A stretch of 54,394 nt of DNA, taken from the IMG/VR virus record IMGVR_UViG_2541047753_000004, one strand, 5' to 3'. Every line of letters begins with the position of its first letter. The first letter of the stretch is position 1. The DNA comes from a virus. Its lineage: Duplodnaviria; Heunggongvirae; Uroviricota; Caudoviricetes. Position numbers and translations under genes: made by a program. Shown here piece after piece: positions 1-24,222 of the stretch. The notes under the pieces were generated by a model. It made no database searches, had not been told where the DNA came from, and saw only the letters and a list, made by a program, of their open reading frames with translations.

Positions 1-1209
1 ATGTCGGTTTTTCATAACTGGCTGCTTGATATCGCAAGCGGGAATTACTTTATCTACATCAAACGCCTTTCTGCAAACGACACTGGCGCAACAGGTGGCC
101 ATCAGGTCGGACTTTATATCCCCTCAAATATCGTTGAAAAGCTTTTTCCATCTATCAATCATACTCGCGAACTGAACCCTTCAGTCTTCCTTACTGCGCA
201 TGTATCATCCCATGATTGCCCTGATACCCAAGCACGCGCAATTTATTACAACAACCGTTATTTTGGTAAGACCCGAAACGAAAAAAGAATTACGCGCTGG
301 GGGAGAGGAAGTCCATTACAGAACCCTGAAAATACAGGAGCTCTCACAATTCTTGCTTTCAGGTTAAACGAACAGAACACTGACTGTTCCGAGGTAGATA
401 TATGGGTCTGCGTCAATCCCGATGAAGAGGATATCATCGAGTCTGCTATTGGCGAAATCATACCTGGAACCCTAATTTCCGGCCCTGCCGGACAAATTTT
501 GGGCGGATTGTCTCTTCAGCAAACTCCAGTAAATCATAAATATGTTATTCCTGAAGACTGGAAGAAGCGTTTTCCTTCTGGAAACGAAATTATTCAATAT
601 GCTGCTGGCCATTATGCTAAAAACTCCAAGGATCCAGATGAGCAACTGATTGACCGTCGGCGTGTCGAGTATGATATTTTTCTACTCGTCGAGGAATTAC
701 ATGTTCTTGATATTATTAAGAAAGGATTCGATTCTGTAGATGAGTTTATTGCATTAGCCAACTCTGTCAGTAATCGACGTAAATCAAGGGCAGGTAAATC
801 ACTTGAACTTCACCTAGAGAAGCTTTTTATCGAGCACGGACTACGGCATTTCTCCACTCAGGCAGTTACTGAAGGTAATAAAAAACCAGATTTCCTGTTT
901 CCTTCAGCAGAGGCATATCATAACGCTGAATTTCCTGTAGAAAACTTACGTATGCTGGCAGTAAAGACCACCTGCAAAGATCGCTGGCGTCAGATACTGA
1001 ATGAAGCAGATAAAATCCATCAGGTACATTTATTTACGCTGCAAGAAGGTGTTTCTTCAGCACAATACCGAGAAATGAAAGATGCGGGTGTCAGACTCGT
1101 TGTACCATCAACTTTACATAAAAAATACCCAGAAGCAGTTAGAGAAGAATTAATAACGCTCGGAGCATTCATTACTGAGCTGATAGAACTTTACACTGAA
1201 CTATCATAG
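1..1209 (+). CDS. ecoRIIR: Type IIE restriction endonuclease, EcoRII family
   Basis: 402-aa ORF; N-terminus MSVFHNWLL...YIKRLSANDTGATGGHQVGLYIP matches the EcoRII sequence as I recall it; convergent with a C5-cytosine methyltransferase. Confidence 0.8.
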   Translation: MSVFHNWLLDIASGNYFIYIKRLSANDTGATGGHQVGLYIPSNIVEKLFPSINHTRELNPSVFLTAHVSSHDCPDTQARAIYYNNRYFGKTRNEKRITRWGRGSPLQNPENTGALTILAFRLNEQNTDCSEVDIWVCVNPDEEDIIESAIGEIIPGTLISGPAGQILGGLSLQQTPVNHKYVIPEDWKKRFPSGNEIIQYAAGHYAKNSKDPDEQLIDRRRVEYDIFLLVEELHVLDIIKKGFDSVDEFIALANSVSNRRKSRAGKSLELHLEKLFIEHGLRHFSTQAVTEGNKKPDFLFPSAEAYHNAEFPVENLRMLAVKTTCKDRWRQILNEADKIHQVHLFTLQEGVSSAQYREMKDAGVRLVVPSTLHKKYPEAVREELITLGAFITELIELYTELS

Positions 1210-1243
1210 GCTGACTCCCGGCTTAAAAGGCCGGGAGGTGTTC

Positions 1244-2677
1244 TCAAGGCTGCCCAGTCTTACCAGCATCAGCAGAAACAGCTTTGAGGATATAGGGTTC
1301 CAGAAGTCTGGCAACGGCTTCAAATACTGGCACCACAACGGAGTTACCGAACTGCCGATATGACTGAGTATCTGAAACCGGAATACGGAATGGTTTCCCT
1401 CCAGGTTTTTCAAACCCCATAAGGCGTGCGCACTCTCGGGGAGTCAGCCTGCGTGGTCGACGAGCCTGGTTACTCTCATTCATAAAGTCAGCCTCTCCCG
1501 TTGCCATATCCCAACCACGATCAATAAGAATTTCTGATCCGTCTTTGTGATATCTGGCAGAAAGTGTGCGTGCAATGCTTTCCTTATTCTCAGGATTGAC
1601 CAACCCAAAGCCAAAACCATTCCCCTTGGCTGCATGCTTTTTGGCGTAGTTATAAAGGTACTCCCATAGTTTTGGCGTAAGTATATATTTACTGTCGACT
1701 ACAGGCTCCAGCAATTCACCAAATGATGGGCGGTGTTCCGGATAAAAACGACTGATATCACGCAAGGTAAACCCCTTGTGAATATTCAGATCTCGTCTAA
1801 ATCCGACCAGAACAATGCGTTCACGATGCTGAGGCAAAAAATGCTTCCCATCGATAATCTTTGGATCGTTTTTTCCCATTTCTGCAGCATCGGCAACTTC
1901 GTAGCCCAGCTCGTCAAGGGTCTCCATAATGACTTTGAAAGTTTTACCCTTATCATGGCTCTTCAGATTTTTGACATTTTCCAGCACAAAAATTGCCGGT
2001 TTTTTTGCTCGTATAATACGTGCCACGTCAAAAAAAAGTGTTCCTTGTGCTTCACATTCAAAACCATGCGCACGACCAAGTGAGTTTTTCTTACTAACAC
2101 CAGCAAGGCTAAATGGCTGGCACGGGAACCCCGCAAGAAGCACATCATGATCCGGCACATGCTCATCAATATATGCATAAGCATCCGTTTCCAATACATC
2201 GGTTTTATCACTCAGCGTGACTTCCCGAATATCGAGATTGAATTTATGCACCTGTTCATCGTTAAACCAGTTGGCCTTGTATGTACGCACAGCATCTTTA
2301 TTCCATTCACTGGTAAAAACACACTGACCTCCAATGGCCTCAAAACCTTTCCGTATCCCTCCAATTCCAGCAAATAAGTCAATGAAGCGGAAAGCATATT
2401 CCGGATGGTTTGCAGGTGGTTCTGGTAGCATCTTACGCAGAAGAGACTCTTCTACTGAAGTCAACGATTTTGGTAAACACTTGCCATTAATCCAGCGGTT
2501 AATGGTTTCACGGCTCCACTCATTTTTTCCGACTTTTCTCAGTAATTCAGCCACATACTTCTGATCATAGATTTCCAGCACTTTCTCGATAAGCTTTTTA
2601 TCATTTTCCTGTCGCAGCTTTTCTTCCGCCTCGGCTTCCTTCAGCAGATGCTGTGCCAACACTTCAAATTCAGACAT
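1244..2677 (-). CDS. ecoRIIM: DNA (cytosine-5) methyltransferase, M.EcoRII/Dcm-like
   Basis: C5-MTase motifs [10 protein letters not shown] (motif I), FPCQPFS (PCQ, motif IV), ENV (FVLENVKNL), QFGNSV; likely start at MSEFEVLAQ giving 477 aa; ORF track extends 14 codons upstream. Confidence 0.85.
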
Positions 2678-2895
2678 AATTCCTCCAAGGGGTCTAATGG
2701 GTGAAACTTTATCACTCATTCAACCCAGAAGGAAATGTTTTATCTGGATATTTAAACAGTGACTACAACGTAATCTAGCACTGGTGATGCTTTGTTAGGC
2801 ATAGAGAATCATTCTATATACGACTAATGACAGAAAAACAGCAGACAAGTAGTTTGTTCATAAATTAACGCATACAACGTGCCTGCGGTTTTTGA

Positions 2896-3852
<957 letters not shown>

Positions 3853-3909
3853 GTCTTTAAGTGATAAGCATAAACCGCAGCACGATCTTGCATACGACGT
3901 GCTACGGTT

Positions 3910-4464
3910 TCATTTATCTCCGACCGGAAACTTCTTATACAGTGTCGATATACCAACATCATAGATGATCGCCACCTTCTGGCGAGGAACGCCTGATGCA
4001 ATTAATCGCCCGGCCTGCGCCCATTGTTCTGGTGTAAGTTTGGGACGACGTCCACCAATTCGTCCCTGTGCGCGAGCAGCTTCCAGTCCAGCTTTTGTTC
4101 GTTCAACAATCAGTTCTCGTTCCATTTCAGCCAGGGCACCCATCACATGAAAGAAAAAACGCCCCATCGGTGTGCTGGTATCAATAGCATCCGTCAGGCT
4201 GCGAAAATTAACGCCACGTTCGCGCAACTCCTCAACCAGAATGACCAGATGCCGCATACTACGCCCTAGCCGATCCAGCTTCCAGACAACCAGAGTGTCA
4301 CCTGCCGATAATGTCCTGAGCAGTTTTTTCAGTCCCGGCCTTTCGGACTTTGTACCGCTTATCTTGTCTTCAAAAATCAGCTCGCATCCTGCACAGTTCA
4401 GCGCATTACGTTGTAGATCTGTGTTCTGGTCATTTGTTGACACACGTACATAGCCAATAAGCAT
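3910..4464 (-). CDS. pin: Serine recombinase, DNA invertase Pin/Gin/Hin family
   Basis: MLIGYVRVSTNDQNTDLQRNAL... with catalytic Ser context and C-terminal HTH; 184 aa from MLIGY start; adjacent to inverted crossover sites. Confidence 0.9.
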   Translation of the reverse strand: MLIGYVRVSTNDQNTDLQRNALNCAGCELIFEDKISGTKSERPGLKKLLRTLSAGDTLVVWKLDRLGRSMRHLVILVEELRERGVNFRSLTDAIDTSTPMGRFFFHVMGALAEMERELIVERTKAGLEAARAQGRIGGRRPKLTPEQWAQAGRLIASGVPRQKVAIIYDVGISTLYKKFPVGDK

Positions 4465-4490
4465 GGTAGATCTCCCTGACAAAAGCAGGA

Positions 4491-4883
4491 ATGATGCCAT
4501 TTGCTCGTTATTTCTGCATTTTCATAAACGTTGGTTTGGGAGAAGGTTCAGCATTACCTGTTGGTGCACCTGCGCCTCAGCTTCCTGATATACCTACAAC
4601 TGTGTGGCTTAATTCCGTCCCAGCAGATCTTACTTCTGAAGACGGTTTAGATCTTCAAAGGGCTCACATGGCTGATCCACTGCCGTCTCTGGGCGGTGTA
4701 ATTATTTTTGCCAGGGCAGATTCGAGTGGGTGTGATACGGGATTTTCAACTCAGGGTTGTACTCCCGCAACTTTTAATGTTAGAGATTTACATGATGCTG
4801 GTGATAACCAGGTGCATATTAATTTCAATTCCAGTATCGCCGTAGCTGGTGTCGATGCTGTTTTTATTGCATTAGACTCATAA
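4491..4883 (+). CDS. Alternative tail-fibre C-terminal segment (silent in current orientation)
   Basis: ORF reads through the left crossover site (…GLGEGSALPV…); inversion would fuse it in frame to the constant fibre N-terminus at 6444-6721. Confidence 0.45.
   Translation: MMPFARYFCIFINVGLGEGSALPVGAPAPQLPDIPTTVWLNSVPADLTSEDGLDLQRAHMADPLPSLGGVIIFARADSSGCDTGFSTQGCTPATFNVRDLHDAGDNQVHINFNSSIAVAGVDAVFIALDS
4519..4544. repeat. Invertase crossover site (ix-like), left copy
   Basis: 26-bp site ttttcataaacgttggtttgggagaa; reverse complement TTCTCCCAAACC AA CGTTTATGAAAA resembles hix/gix-type sites. Confidence 0.7.
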
Positions 4884-4909
4884 TATCCTTTAGCTGGAAG
4901 GAATAGAAA

Positions 4910-5149
4910 ATGAATTCCATATATAGCGCATATCTACATACCGTGTATCCCTTGGACAGCGGAGGGTATTACAAGCGGGCCATCGATATCACAGCGGACT
5001 CGGTTCAATTTGTTGAATTAGAGCATGATGGGTGTTTAAGATATAAGGCCAAATTAAATATCGATATTGCTGGCGCGAAGGCGTGGCATGTTTGTTTTTA
5101 TAATCCTCAAGGTAAACAAGAAGAATATATTGCTGCAGCCGCACAGTAA
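4910..5149 (+). CDS. Short tail-fibre assembly/chaperone-like protein (putative)
   Basis: 79-aa ORF directly after the alternative fibre segment inside the invertible region; assigned by position only. Confidence 0.3.
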   Translation: MNSIYSAYLHTVYPLDSGGYYKRAIDITADSVQFVELEHDGCLRYKAKLNIDIAGAKAWHVCFYNPQGKQEEYIAAAAQ

Positions 5150-6382
5150 CATCAGCAAGTGATTAATAATCCCGCATATTACAGGATAAGTGCACAAGGA
5201 ACAGGTAAAGCGGGTTATGCCCTTTGGAGCGGTGCGGAATTAGAGCAATGGAAATAGTGGCCAGATTATCGGGGAGAACTGGTGTAGGTCAACAAATTGA
5301 GTGAGGCAGATGTAAAATCACCTACGGGTGCGGAACTCGAAAACAGAAGACCTCTCGCGCCGTGATCGTATTTGGATCAGTGACATCGTCAATAAAGTCT
5401 AACCGAGTGTGAAGTAGGGAATCCCCCGCCTGCATAAGCTGCAGCCGCACAGGTTCTTTCACTGGTTGAAGACGAAATGACGTCCTTGAAGTTTATTTCA
5501 CTGACAGTAGCGGTTCGGCTGCAGCTTCTACTGGCAGAGGACGCTGTACCTAAGTATCGGTTAGCTATTTTTCACCCTCCGATTTCTCGTAAGGCGTGAA
5601 TCGCGCGGGAGGTCATGTAGCTTCAGGTGCCGGAGCCGGAGTCCATACAATTTCTGCCGCACCGATTTCATTGTTCAGGTCCAGTTCTCCCAGATGGTCC
5701 AGCAACAAATTCTATTGCGCTAGTTCCTCACCGTGGAGAATGGCAAAAGCCGCTTTATCAGCTCCTTGTGTATTTAAACAATAACCGTTCGCATGACTAA
5801 CAAAAAGCGCATTATTTTGTTTTGCTGTGGCAATATATTCTCCATGTGCACGTTGTTAATTTTCAAACCTAGCATGCACCCCCTTTGTTGCAACAATATC
5901 GATTTTTACTTCGGCCGGTTACATTGAAAAGCCAATATACAGTAGCTCAATGAAAGGATAAGCATCAGCTGTGAATTCCACGCCCCGGTTGAAATATCCT
6001 TCGATGTCCAAGGAGTACAAATAATTTGTAGATGTGCTAAATCAGTAATACAATTTTCACTCCATACTGCTAAAGGATAATATCACCTTACAGCAATTAA
6101 TGAAGAACCAATAGCGGGTAAGGCTATACTGAAATTAAATTTCACAGTGACATGGTTACAACCGGCACCAGGTATAGCTCTAACATTAACTCTTCCGGGC
6201 TTGTAATTTAGCAATGCAAGTACCGGAACAATCCCTCTCGGAACTTCACACGCACGAAAGAACTCTCCACGTTGATCCGTCAGCTGATCAGTCAGTTACC
6301 CCTATGCCAGATTTGAATATTATGGCGCAGATAGATATGCAGGATCTCATGCCAGCAACATAGTACGACCCATCTCTGATGT
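5150..6382 (-). pseudogene. Degenerate tail-fibre-assembly arm of the invertible segment
   Basis: ~1.2 kb with no ORF of 60 aa or more on the minus strand; minus-strand fragments such as LLDHLGELDLNNEIGAAEIVWTPAPAPE are interrupted by stops. Confidence 0.3.
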
Positions 6383-6721
6383 CTACTGAGCAGCTGTCCC
6401 AACATGTAATGTAGACGCTTCTCCCAAACCAAGGTTTTCGAGAGCCGTTTTCACGGTGCCATCCGATTTGATATCGTCAAACGGATTCTTGCGGCTTAAC
6501 AGCAGCGCACGAAGCGCGGTAAGCAGCTGGTCATGCCGCCCCTTCTCCAGGCTGGCACCGGATGCCTCCACCACGCCACAAAGCTCTTCCTGCAACATGT
6601 CAAAGTAGTCATCATCCAGATCGGTGGCAGGCGTGCCAGTCTGGGGGTTACCACGGGTAAAACCGTTCTTACCCGCGCCGAACTTATCCTTCTGCGCGGT
6701 TTTCGTGTCTATACGATGCAT
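6383..6721 (-). CDS. Tail fibre protein, constant N-terminal part joined to a very short C-terminus in this orientation
   Basis: Directly downstream of the YmfQ-like baseplate gene; crossover site encodes residues ~93-101 (ALENLGLGE); ORF stops 11 codons later. Confidence 0.55.
6419..6444. repeat. Invertase crossover site (ix-like), right copy, inverted relative to the left copy
   Basis: ttctcccaaaccaaggttttcgagag shares 14 nt TTCTCCCAAACCAA with the left copy in opposite orientation; lies inside the 3' end of the tail-fibre gene. Confidence 0.7.
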
Positions 6722-6724
6722 GGA

Positions 6725-7309
6725 TTACTCCGGATATTTAAAAATTACGTAGGTATGCGACGGGCAGAGTTTGTTAAGCACACACTCGACAACGGTGTCA
6801 CCCCAGATACGCAGTGCGGAATCACAGGGATCGCCACATGTCATCCAGGTGGTGTTGGTGGTGGTTGGCATGTTGACCTGCCAGTAATACCGCCATTCCG
6901 GCGCATTCACCGCGTCAGTACAGGCCGATGAGCAGGTGAACGTGCTTTTGTCGTATCGCGTGATGGTGGCATCTGGTCTGCCCAGGGCAGCAAGCTGTGC
7001 AAGATAAAAATCCTCGTTGATGCCGCCCGCCAGGTTAACCTTCGCATCCAGCCGTTGCTGACGCTGGCGAAGGGTCTGCGTTCCCGCCGGAATACATTCA
7101 TCCGGCAGACCGCACAGACGCTCCCAGCGGTTTATCAGTTCAGTGGTGGTGCGCGGATCCAGCTCCCGCATCAGGGCATCCGCACGCTGATGAACACGGG
7201 TTAATGACGGTGCCGCACCGGCAATCGCCGGATCGCTGGCTGACCACGCCGGACCAGGCGGCAACAGTGCCGATAACAGGCGGATGTAATCATCGTTTGT
7301 CACGTCCAT
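6725..7309 (-). CDS. Phage tail protein, YmfQ/DUF2313-like (Mu gp48-like)
   Basis: 194 aa, position after baseplate J gene; family assigned from recalled similarity to e14 YmfQ. Confidence 0.65.
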
Positions 7310-8358
7310 GAAATCGTCCCCAGTACCGCCAGTTCGTTTTTCGCAATGGAGATATTGTCCACCGGTGCAAGCAACTGATGGCTGTATTCCCCGTTCGCAC
7401 CGGAAATCGCCTCACTGATACGCGATACCTTCAGTTCTCCCTGCGGATAACCATCACGCAGCAGGAACGAACGCAACTCCGCGGTAATGGCAGCCCGTAT
7501 TTCCGGTGTGTCCGGCGTCACGCGGATATGAAAATCCACCGTATGTGCCACCGGCCTGAATACATACAAATCAGAGCCTGCCACCGGGGCCAGTGGCCCG
7601 ATATGTTGTCTTGCTGCCGTTTCCGTTGATTCTTCCGGAATGGGATTAATCAGGTCACTGCTGGCAATCATCACACCGACAGTTCCCGTTCCCATCCAGT
7701 GACGGTATGTCCATGCGCGGGTAATGCCGGGCACTTCTTTAGCCCAGACGACATAGTCCCCGTCAGCCCCGCCCTGAGGCGTCCAGTAATACCGCTCAAT
7801 GACGCGGGCGCGCCACGTTTCCAGCTCTTCAGTATCAAATCCACCTGTCAGGGTATCTGCCACGCCGGAAGACGGCAGACCATTAACCGGCGTGACCAGG
7901 ATTAATGACGTACCGTCGTCAGCGTTACCGACCGCGCCTGCACTTGAGCAGGCGATCGGCACGCGCAGGACACCACCGGAGCTGGTTGCATCGGCAGTTG
8001 CCGTGTACTGAACCAGGTCATCGCGCTGAATAACACTCCCGGCGGTCACCTTCAGGCCATCGCTGACACCTTCCCAGCGCATATACCCGCTGGCAGCCGT
8101 GGCCCCCTTGCGCGGACACCGTTTCATCGCAGCATGTCGCGCCAGCCAGGACTCATCGCACAGGTCAGGCAGCATGTTCATTGCCAGATAATCGATGTAC
8201 CCGTAAACCGTATGCAGCGCCGCCGCATACACCTTTGCCCGCACGTCTTCATCCATGCGCCGGAGCGTGTCGCTGACGTCCAGCCTGGCGAATAAATCGT
8301 TACGGAGCATACTGATATTTTCTGCCAGCGTCGGGCGCTGAAATTCACTGTCCGCCAT
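7300..8358 (-). CDS. Baseplate J-like protein (Mu gp47-like)
   Basis: 352 aa, position and size in Mu-type baseplate module. Confidence 0.8.
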
Positions 8359-24056: not shown

Positions 24057-24222
24057 TTATATCCCCTCTTTGGTGCACGCTTACAATGCGTAAAAAAGCC
24101 TCGCATTAGCGAGGCTCGTTTATATCTTGAAGGTGAATACTTATTGTCTTATCTATCCACGGGAAACATTAAGATTATTACACCCGTTAGTTGGGAAATA
24201 AAACAAAATGCAGGTGGTTTAT

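Follow-up and report, generated by a model that had tools for sequence, protein, structure and literature searches.

A Pin inversion switch whose deposited interior blends its two orientations

Introduction

The P segment of the cryptic prophage e14 in Escherichia coli K-12 (stfP/tfaP/tfaE/stfE/pinE) is the closest described relative of the locus reported here. The two share a layout in which the invertase gene lies outside the segment, the constant region of the tail-fibre gene lies on its far side, and ymfQ and the baseplate J gene are found upstream. Both orientations of e14-type segments are known in nature and in cultures, and e14 cultures hold both orientations (PMC4272514; PMC12529663). 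The G segment of phage Mu, inverted by the serine invertase Gin at 26-bp sites of like architecture, similarly offers alternative fibre C-termini with Tfa/U chaperones in opposed orientation. The C segment of P1 with its invertase Cin and the Hin/hix system of Salmonella are related switches alongside Mu Gin. Within this Hin/Gin/Cin/Pin family, the invertase gene contains a Fis-bound recombinational enhancer in its 5′ portion.

Here we analyze a locus of this kind in a window of 54,394 nt, the whole stretch of viral DNA under study (IMG/VR record IMGVR_UViG_2541047753_000004). From the sequence alone, an earlier note had proposed that it carries a Pin inversion switch with one functional and one decayed tail-fibre arm.

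Results

A complete Pin switch flanks the segment

The two inverted 26-bp sites that the earlier note placed around ~1.9 kb are both present (Table 1). They are inverted relative to each other, with a core of AA at one and of TT on the plus strand at the other. The distal site agrees at 26/26 positions with the stfP-side site of K-12 e14, and the pin-proximal site matches its own e14 counterpart equally well (26/26). For a 26-mer of this kind, 0.00 chance matches are expected in the window, and the distal site is unique there. We searched the window for further crossover sites, as in a Min-like multi-inversion system, and found none beyond these two. Compared to gix of Mu (NC_000929), the crossover site is identical at 18/26 positions, and its core is AA rather than GA.

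The invertase gene lies outside the segment, with its start 55 nt from the nearer site; an ORF listed out to 4500 represents an upstream extension of pin. Its product is a serine invertase by Pfam (Resolvase, 8.9e-52; HTH_7, 5e-13), sharing 176/184 residues (96%) with K-12 PinE and 142 identical residues with Mu Gin in a global alignment, so that the reading of the locus as a Pin inversion switch holds. The pin DNA is 100% identical to that of E. coli ETEC1717 and is the same as in genomes where both segment orientations occur. A scan of pin with a strict Fis consensus returned no two sites at a 48-bp spacing; we note that real enhancer sites deviate from this consensus.

On the far side, the genes of the late tail operon are encoded on the minus strand. 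The constant 5′ part of the fibre gene is about 96-99% identical to that of e14-type prophages and joins in frame whichever arm faces it, yielding a fibre of 213 or 265 aa after un-mixing of the interior, as described below. In contrast to the cryptic e14 of K-12, the prophage here is full-length: complete head and tail regions plus a lambdoid early region are annotated in its nearest genome. As cargo it carries, next to pin, an EcoRII-type R-M pair with a GIY-YIG protein instead of mcrA.

Table 1. Features of the locus in window coordinates; F and R denote the two segment orientations, and features marked as ghosts are open only after un-mixing
Feature	Position	Strand	Details
pin, DNA invertase, 184 aa, intact	3910-4464	-	ATG at 4464; Resolvase + HTH_7
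Pin-proximal 26-bp crossover site	4519-4544	-	TTCTCCCAAACCAACGTTTATGAAAA on minus strand; core dinucleotide 4531-4532
Blended stretch	4573-6415	none	each base drawn at random from F or R of a single intact P segment
Distal 26-bp crossover site, within fibre gene	6419-6444	+	TTCTCCCAAACCAAGGTTTTCGAGAG; core dinucleotide 6431-6432
Constant 5′ part of tail-fibre gene	6445-6721	-	start codon 6721; outside the blend
ymfQ / Mu Gp48-like baseplate gene	6725-7309	-	Pfam Phage_Mu_Gp48 1e-26; directly upstream of fibre gene
Baseplate_J	7300-8358		follows ymfQ
130-aa ORF, as written	4491-4883	+	chance-open blend
79-aa ORF, as written	4910-5149	+	blended past the start codon
F-state expressed fibre, 213 aa, Gp53-like C-terminus (ghost)	6080-6721	-	Pfam Gp53-like_C 4e-18
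F-state Tfa chaperone, 146 aa (ghost)	5613-6053	-	Caudo_TAP 2.3e-38
F-state silent Tfa chaperone, 200 aa (ghost)	5039-5641	+	Caudo_TAP 4e-30
F-state silent arm, Collar-domain fibre C-terminus (ghost)	4491-5039	+	
R-state fusion fibre, 265 aa (ghost)	5924-6721	-	Pfam Collar 1.3e-15

Every interior base comes from one of two orientations

By megablast against 3634 E. coli records, the flanks were matched and the interior was not. With blastn, the interior matched 1448 E. coli records at only 60-80% identity. As the match stood at about 64% over an identical length, we made an in-register comparison. Aligned with ETEC1717, the left flank (3100-4550) matches at 100% and the segment has the same length, while identity stays at about 62% all along the interior, without an indel.

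We then defined two parents: F, the P segment of ETEC1717, and R, that segment flipped at the crossover cores, which is precisely its state in ETEC1730. The interior is nearly equally identical to the two orientations (64% and 62%). Between 4545 and 6418, all 1874 of 1874 bases match F or R, both taken from real genomes, and the same is true of 1926/1926 bases when the crossover sites are included (4519-6444). As controls, the K-12 P segment gave an either-parent match of 46%, and shuffles gave 44% (maximum 48%).

The first R-state base is at 4573 and the last at 6415, and the 1843 nt so delimited contain 0 third-state bases and 0 indels. The mirror axis sum of 10963 places the axis exactly on the two core dinucleotides. 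Informative positions divide into 707 F and 691 R (p = 0.69), and all non-informative positions are conserved (445/445). The choice between F and R changes as expected of independent picks, with 695 runs compared to 699.9 expected (z = -0.26) and an autocorrelation of about 0; at mismatches it is independent of codon position and of neighbouring bases. We tested the picks for alphabetical or base preference, blocks and mirror-correlated choices and saw none.

A reference-free measure gave the same picture. Mirrored self-complementarity of the interior is 61% over 909 position pairs, compared to 24% for a real segment and 62.5% expected for a blend, and its mirror axis is the only one above 40% within the 54-kb window. 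The blend is asymmetric at its ends: the 16 informative positions at 4546-4571 are all F, which leaves 27 nt (4546-4572) in pure F state, and the right end is mixed to 3 nt or less from the site. We conclude that 4573-6415, as deposited, is a per-base 50:50 blend of two orientations and represents no real molecule, and we are nearly certain that the locus is a known Pin switch with such a blend as its interior.

Both cassettes are intact once un-mixed

Two opposed cassettes, each consisting of a fibre C-terminus and a Tfa chaperone, are absent from the written sequence and present once it is un-mixed. All four un-mixed proteins match Pfam families (Gp53-like_C, Collar and Caudo_TAP twice), and the counterpart of the 213-aa fibre in ETEC1717 is annotated as a gp53-like protein. 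Sibling isolates carry each of the two pure states: ETEC1717 and ETEC1718 match the F junction at 100%, ETEC1730 matches the R junction at 100% across 801 nt, and over 3151 nt there the complete R state has 0 mismatches. ETEC1730 carries a truly locked copy: IS66 interrupts its pin, and both arms are still intact. An intact pair of fibre and tfa, which by the earlier note's own terms would count against its reading, is present in both orientations after un-mixing. Both fibre/Tfa cassettes are intact, and the locus is an ordinary e14-type Pin/P-segment switch.

Reading frames in the blended sequence

As written, the fibre ORF runs from 6721 to 6383 (112 aa) and stops 11 codons past the crossover site, and there are no minus-strand ORFs of at least 60 aa across 5150-6418. 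The earlier note had described both the early stop and the ORF-poor ~1.2 kb correctly. Its working arm, a ~118-residue C-terminus with a short assembly-like ORF, does not stand: the corresponding ORFs, of 130 and 79 aa, stayed open by chance, and neither matches a Pfam family. The stop of the 130-aa ORF at 4883 comes from the R-state silent Gp53-like arm, and the start codon of the 79-aa ORF at 4910 is that of the R-state 146-aa Tfa (4910-5350). The sole cluster-mate of the 130-aa ORF is EQQ73928.1, which is the same locus on the same HVH 111 scaffold and is one residue shorter (129 aa). The 79-aa ORF is a singleton among about 15 billion proteins (EQQ73929.1 / WP_021528950.1).

We simulated blends by choosing bases at random from F and R and tallied the ORF outcomes. 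An ORF of at least 130 aa arose on the plus strand in 12% of trials, and the fibre was cut at 112 aa or less in 44%. Because random blends of both parents reproduce the ORF pattern, the apparent asymmetry between the arms is attributable to chance.

These results bear on two readings that take the written sequence at face value. One, the reading of the earlier note, is that a real switch has had one fibre/tfa arm decay to a pseudogene, leaving the segment locked or non-productive. The fibre ORF that ends just beyond the site points that way, as does 4881-6385, since the window has no other long stretch that lacks ORFs. However, decay predicts indels and foreign bases, of which the 1843 nt hold none, and the supposedly functional arm is equally scrambled: of its 131 positions in register (130 residues plus the stop), 59 match the F parent and 57 the R parent. 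Both arms are scrambled alike, with each base drawn from one or the other orientation of an intact segment, while Pin and both crossover sites are undamaged, and the real locked copy in ETEC1730 looks different. As the either-parent match is 100%, the decayed-arm reading is refuted, and we consider it extremely improbable. The other is that the interior is a real, highly divergent cassette pair, with about 64% DNA identity to known P segments and novel short receptor-binding tips. The low blastn identity and the uniqueness of the ORFs in the protein collection would fit, but 36% divergence with zero indels next to a 100% identical flank is not cassette-like divergence, nor would such cassettes be equally identical to both orientations, have all bases explained by one or the other, and show mismatch choices independent of codon position or adjacent bases. 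We give this reading virtually no credence.

The GenBank record already carries the blend

By exact protein look-ups, we traced the blend to NCBI GCA_000457555.1 / KE699806.1 (E. coli strain HVH 111, 4-7039018), at about 1241333-1243175. The submitter's proteins EQQ73928.1, EQQ73929.1 and EQQ73930.1 (locus tags G772_025xx) and the RefSeq WP_ proteins all translate the blend, as written in ACGT, exactly and with no X residues. In all, three or four GenBank/RefSeq proteins derive from it (EQQ73928-30, WP_021528950.1, WP_248699260.1), and three blend ORF products occur on one contig only among about 15 billion proteins. An exact 40-mer of the blend had no match in IMG/VR and the GTDB representative genomes.

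Since the blend sits in the deposited GenBank record itself, we attribute it to assembly or consensus. Scrambling downstream of GenBank, for example by resolution of IUPAC codes in the data set used, would be compatible with the window and the retrieved loci sharing one processed copy, but the submitter and RefSeq proteins already translate the blended sequence without X, making this very unlikely.

The palindrome signature revealed no second blended Pin locus among 79 Pin-like loci of species-representative genomes. One candidate, from Salmonella diarizonae, was rejected: its 800-nt central weak palindrome comes from intact ORFs converging at the tfa position and is no blend.

Discussion

The biology of this locus is already known: it adds another e14 Pin/P-segment switch, whose two cassettes are intact. 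Apart from its blended interior, it differs from the K-12 segment in its cassettes, which are of the ETEC1717 type (the either-parent match with the K-12 type being the 46% given above). It differs from Mu in its shorter variable arms and in its fibre domain families.

Inversion at the core dinucleotides joins the constant 5′ end of the fibre gene either to the Gp53-like C-terminus with the 146-aa Tfa or to the Collar C-terminus with the 200-aa Tfa. We propose that the HVH 111 culture was probably mixed for orientation, which would mean that Pin is active. The assembler would probably have held two alternatives of equal length and merged them by position into two-fold ambiguities, and these were probably settled at random when plain ACGT was written. 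The short fibre, the ORF desert and the short ORFs that seemed functional are by-products of the blending. ALLPATHS-LG, which we take to be the assembler of the Broad HVH series, is the candidate for KE699806.1. This assembler carries "local ambiguities", including mixed sites from culture (PMC3483556). Such ambiguities resemble the present case in setting two alternatives between fixed flanks, real culture heterogeneity included (PMC3483556). The documented cases range from single bases to about 100 bases, whereas the candidate case here is a whole 1.84-kb inversion, seemingly combined one base at a time and flattened at random.

A mixed culture followed by flattening of ambiguities is, in our judgment, the probable cause of the blend. 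We also lean toward regarding the blend as a fossil of real heterogeneity, left by an HVH 111 culture in which, at sequencing, the P segment was present in both orientations and Pin was actively switching. The F-only left end (4546-4571) is a feature that a simple mixture of reads from the two orientations does not predict, and it suggests contig-end and gap-closure mechanics of the sort expected if the blend were purely algorithmic, that is, if the culture was homogeneous, the segment could not be oriented between its inverted repeats, and both options were merged. The 50:50 ratio would on that account stem from the resolution step and is uninformative on read ratios. However, the common repeat is only about 20-26 bp, far below Illumina read length, and a homogeneous culture gives read support to the junctions of one orientation only, so no second closure is expected. 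Ordinary e14 cultures, moreover, have both orientations (PMC4272514), and Pin is intact here. We therefore think a purely algorithmic origin unlikely and retain the mixed culture as our preferred explanation.

The case calls for caution, as a deposited draft genome carries 1.84 kb that never existed, and to readers and gene-callers the blended region mimics pseudogene decay or a novel cassette. Two quick tests can expose such artefacts: one asks whether each base matches a segment or that segment's inverse, and the other looks for the 62% palindrome signature. If the HVH 111 culture was indeed mixed, a palindrome of ~62% between crossover sites could flag actively inverting segments in legacy drafts, and the same signature could help to purge spurious "hypothetical proteins".

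Base composition of the segment interior

The interval between the two crossover sites was described in the earlier note as a Pin inversion switch whose fibre gene ends 11 codons beyond the site, with no ORF of at least 60 aa on the minus strand of 5150-6418. The ORF listing agrees, and the inverted 26-bp sites lie where that note placed them, so the description is confirmed as a literal observation. The only long ORF-free run of the window, 4881-6385, falls within the stretch discussed here.

A megablast search of 5426 complete E. coli genomes never matched the interior, whereas the flanks matched thousands of records at 97-99%. With blastn, the interior was matched at only ~64%, but as one piece of exactly equal length. 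We therefore made an ungapped comparison, in the same register, with E. coli ETEC1717, which carries the segment in what we call the F orientation. Identity was 100% over 3100-4550, a flat 55-70% without a single indel between 4550 and 6450, and ~96%, with register kept, to the right of 6450. Throughout 4519-6444, each of the 1926 positions holds either the ETEC1717 forward base or the base of that segment reverse-complemented in place (forward alone 64%, reverse alone 62%, either 100.0%). The sole mirror axis that works has a coordinate sum of 10963 and pairs 4531/4532 with 6431/6432, which are the core dinucleotides, the point of strand exchange by a Pin-type recombinase.

Two real parents, ETEC1717 (F) and ETEC1730, which carries the opposite (R) orientation, account for 1874/1874 bases of 4545-6418; the same either-parent comparison gave 46% with the K-12 P segment (the invertible segment of e14) and 44% (maximum 48%) with shuffled parents. 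Within 4573-6415 the parents differ at 1398 positions, of which the window follows F at 707 and R at 691 (binomial p = 0.69), with no third base; all 445 positions at which the parents agree are conserved. The choices fall into 695 runs where 699.9 are expected (z = -0.26), have an autocorrelation of ~0 at lags 1-10, show no base preference in any base pair and are uncorrelated at mirror positions. Mixing F with R should make the full stretch weakly palindromic, with 62.5% self-complementarity expected. The window has 61% (909 position pairs) compared to 24% in the real segment, and this axis is the only one above 40% in a scan of all 54 kb. As no mutation or recombination process yields indel-free, noise-free per-base alternation of a sequence with its own inverse, the interior is two equal-length strings merged position by position and is not a biological sequence.

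The two ends of the blend differ. On the right it reaches 6415, within 3 nt of the site, but on the left it begins only at 4573 and leaves the 27 nt next to the site (4546-4572) unmixed. This unmixed piece has 16 informative positions (4546-4571), every one of them F-state, which coin flips would give with a probability of 2^-16. A left contig may have extended 27 nt along one branch, with an ambiguous gap closure following it.

The two states after un-mixing

Separating the blend yields two complete, sensible states, both present in public genomes of one isolate series. ETEC1717 and ETEC1718 carry the F junction at 100% over 801 nt, and ETEC1730 carries the predicted R junction at 100% over 801 nt; the complete R state differs from ETEC1730 at 0 of 3151 nt.

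Features of the window as written and of the two un-mixed states
Feature	Position	Strand	Details
Endonuclease, EcoRII-N/EcoRII-C	1-1209	+	
C5 cytosine methylase	1244-2719	-	
GIY-YIG protein, LEM-3-like	3079-3852	+	
pin, small serine recombinase (invertase)	3910-4464	-	intact; Resolvase 8.9e-52, HTH_7 5e-13
Crossover site	4519-4544	-	26 bp; TTCTCCCAAACCAACGTTTATGAAAA
Crossover site	6419-6444	+	26 bp; TTCTCCCAAACCAAGGTTTTCGAGAG
ORF as written	4491-4883	+	130 aa
ORF as written	4910-5149	+	79 aa
Fibre ORF as written	6721→6383	-	112 aa; stop 11 codons past site
F state, expressed fibre	6080-6721	-	213 aa; Gp53-like_C 4e-18 (Pfam)
F state, expressed Tfa (fibre assembly chaperone)	5613-6053	-	146 aa; Caudo_TAP 2.3e-38 (Pfam)
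F state, silent Collar-type arm	4491-5039	+	
F state, silent Tfa	5039-5641	+	200 aa; Caudo_TAP 4e-30 (Pfam)
R state, expressed fibre	5924-6721	-	265 aa; Collar 1.3e-15 (Pfam)
R state, expressed Tfa	5322-5924	-	200 aa
R state, silent Gp53-like arm	4491-4883	+	
R state, silent Tfa-146	4910-5350	+	

Apparent decay of one arm

The earlier note read the segment as one functional and one decayed arm, in a switch that might be locked. R-state genes supply both the 4883 stop and the 4910 start. Since either arm has to join the constant region in frame, the two parents share an open frame in between, which makes a blend of the two more likely to stay open there. When random blends of these two parents were simulated 2000 times, 12% had a plus-strand ORF of at least 130 aa from 4491 and 44% had the fibre cut at 112 aa or less; the longest open run had a median of 116 codons, compared to 102 observed. 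Compared in register, the 130-aa ORF agrees with the F parent at 59/131 and the R parent at 57/131 positions, the 79-aa ORF at 29/80 and 26/80, and neither ORF matched any Pfam family. The asymmetry therefore arose from coin flips rather than decay: the contrasting arms are an artefact of the deposited assembly and not real in the organism.

A locked or decayed switch also does not describe this locus, which lacks the features that define one. A genuinely locked switch looks like that of ETEC1730 (NZ_CP122832.1, locus L004, 1-1521), where an IS66-family insertion took out most of pin, leaving an annotated 75-nt remnant, beside a P segment in R orientation with 4/4 cassette genes intact.

Origin of the blend

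By exact protein look-up, the ORFs of 112 and 79 aa map to NCBI scaffold KE699806.1 (assembly GCA_000457555.1) of E. coli HVH 111 (4-7039018). Its DNA, which we fetched, is identical to the window; window position 1 is scaffold position 1236761, putting the blend at about 1241333-1243175. The blend thus sits in the deposited record and was not created by our analysis. The submitter proteins EQQ73928.1, EQQ73929.1 and EQQ73930.1 translate the blended sequence, so the record holds a plain ACGT blend without ambiguity codes; none of the three is found on any other contig in a set of ~15 billion proteins. We note that the entries EQQ73928.1, EQQ73929.1/WP_021528950.1, WP_248699260.1 and EQQ73930.1 (4491-5149, 6383-6721) are spurious, being translations of the blend only.

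Because the choice is exactly unbiased and independent at each position, we infer that two-fold ambiguities were resolved at random rather than by majority voting on reads. The assembler behind KE699806.1, as for the Broad HVH series, was probably ALLPATHS-LG. Reads backing both orientations would lead an assembler to keep two equal-length alternatives between fixed flanks, and these could become two-fold ambiguities from which a base is picked at random per position. Cultures of e14 contain both orientations (PMC4272514; PMC12529663), and ALLPATHS-LG retains "local ambiguities", including sites mixed in culture (PMC3483556).

No second blended segment was found among 79 Pin-like loci of species-representative genomes. 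One candidate, 800 nt beside a Pin homologue of Salmonella enterica subsp. diarizonae CCUG 30040T (L070, ~4050-4850) with ~60% mirrored self-complementarity, was set aside since its ORFs are intact; convergent and in the tfa position (202 aa, plus; 233 aa, minus), they are probably paralogous tfa genes that produce the signal. Across the 79 loci and the protein cluster of the truncated fibre, contigs very often stop at the crossover site: in species-representative drafts (L013-L074), many of the Pin genes begin 70-130 nt from a contig end, and the cluster (protein cluster 3; 40 of 213 members read) holds many StfP fragments labelled "partial", 54-96 aa long. A contig break is the usual short-read assembler failure at these sites, and such breaks hint at mixed orientations.

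The switch and its surroundings

The Pin switch itself stands: the locus is a Pin/e14 P-segment switch, with every defining feature for which the analysis gave a clear result. For the Fis enhancer, a strict consensus scan of pin found no pair of sites 48 bp apart, and real enhancer sites deviate from the consensus. Each crossover site matches its counterpart in the K-12 e14 P segment at 26/26 positions; the two have their central dinucleotides in inverted relation and share the architecture of the Mu gix sites (NC_000929); 0.00 chance occurrences of the full site are expected in the window. The pin product is identical to PinE of K-12 e14 at 176/184 residues and to Gin of phage Mu at 142 residues.

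On the far flank, the constant 5′ end of the fibre gene, a Mu Gp48/YmfQ-like gene and Baseplate_J are part of a prophage tail operon; the annotated prophage of the nearest genome has a complete head, a myovirus tail and a lambdoid early region. Past pin, within 1-3852, lie the LEM-3-like GIY-YIG gene and then an EcoRII-type restriction-modification pair, whereas K-12 e14 has mcrA beside pin; these genes look like defence cargo that was exchanged at the end of the prophage. We found no tRNA genes across the 54 kb. The closest complete genome, 2018-06-4CC, is 99.6% identical over 1-24057 and its related prophage adjoins tRNA-Thr/proA; the integration site in the window's strain may differ. Similarity to 2018-06-4CC stops at 24057, the start of a 660-nt ORF-poor gap.

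The biology of this switch is already known, and the value of the finding is as a database-hygiene warning. Indirectly, the blend also points to active switching by Pin in the culture that was sequenced.
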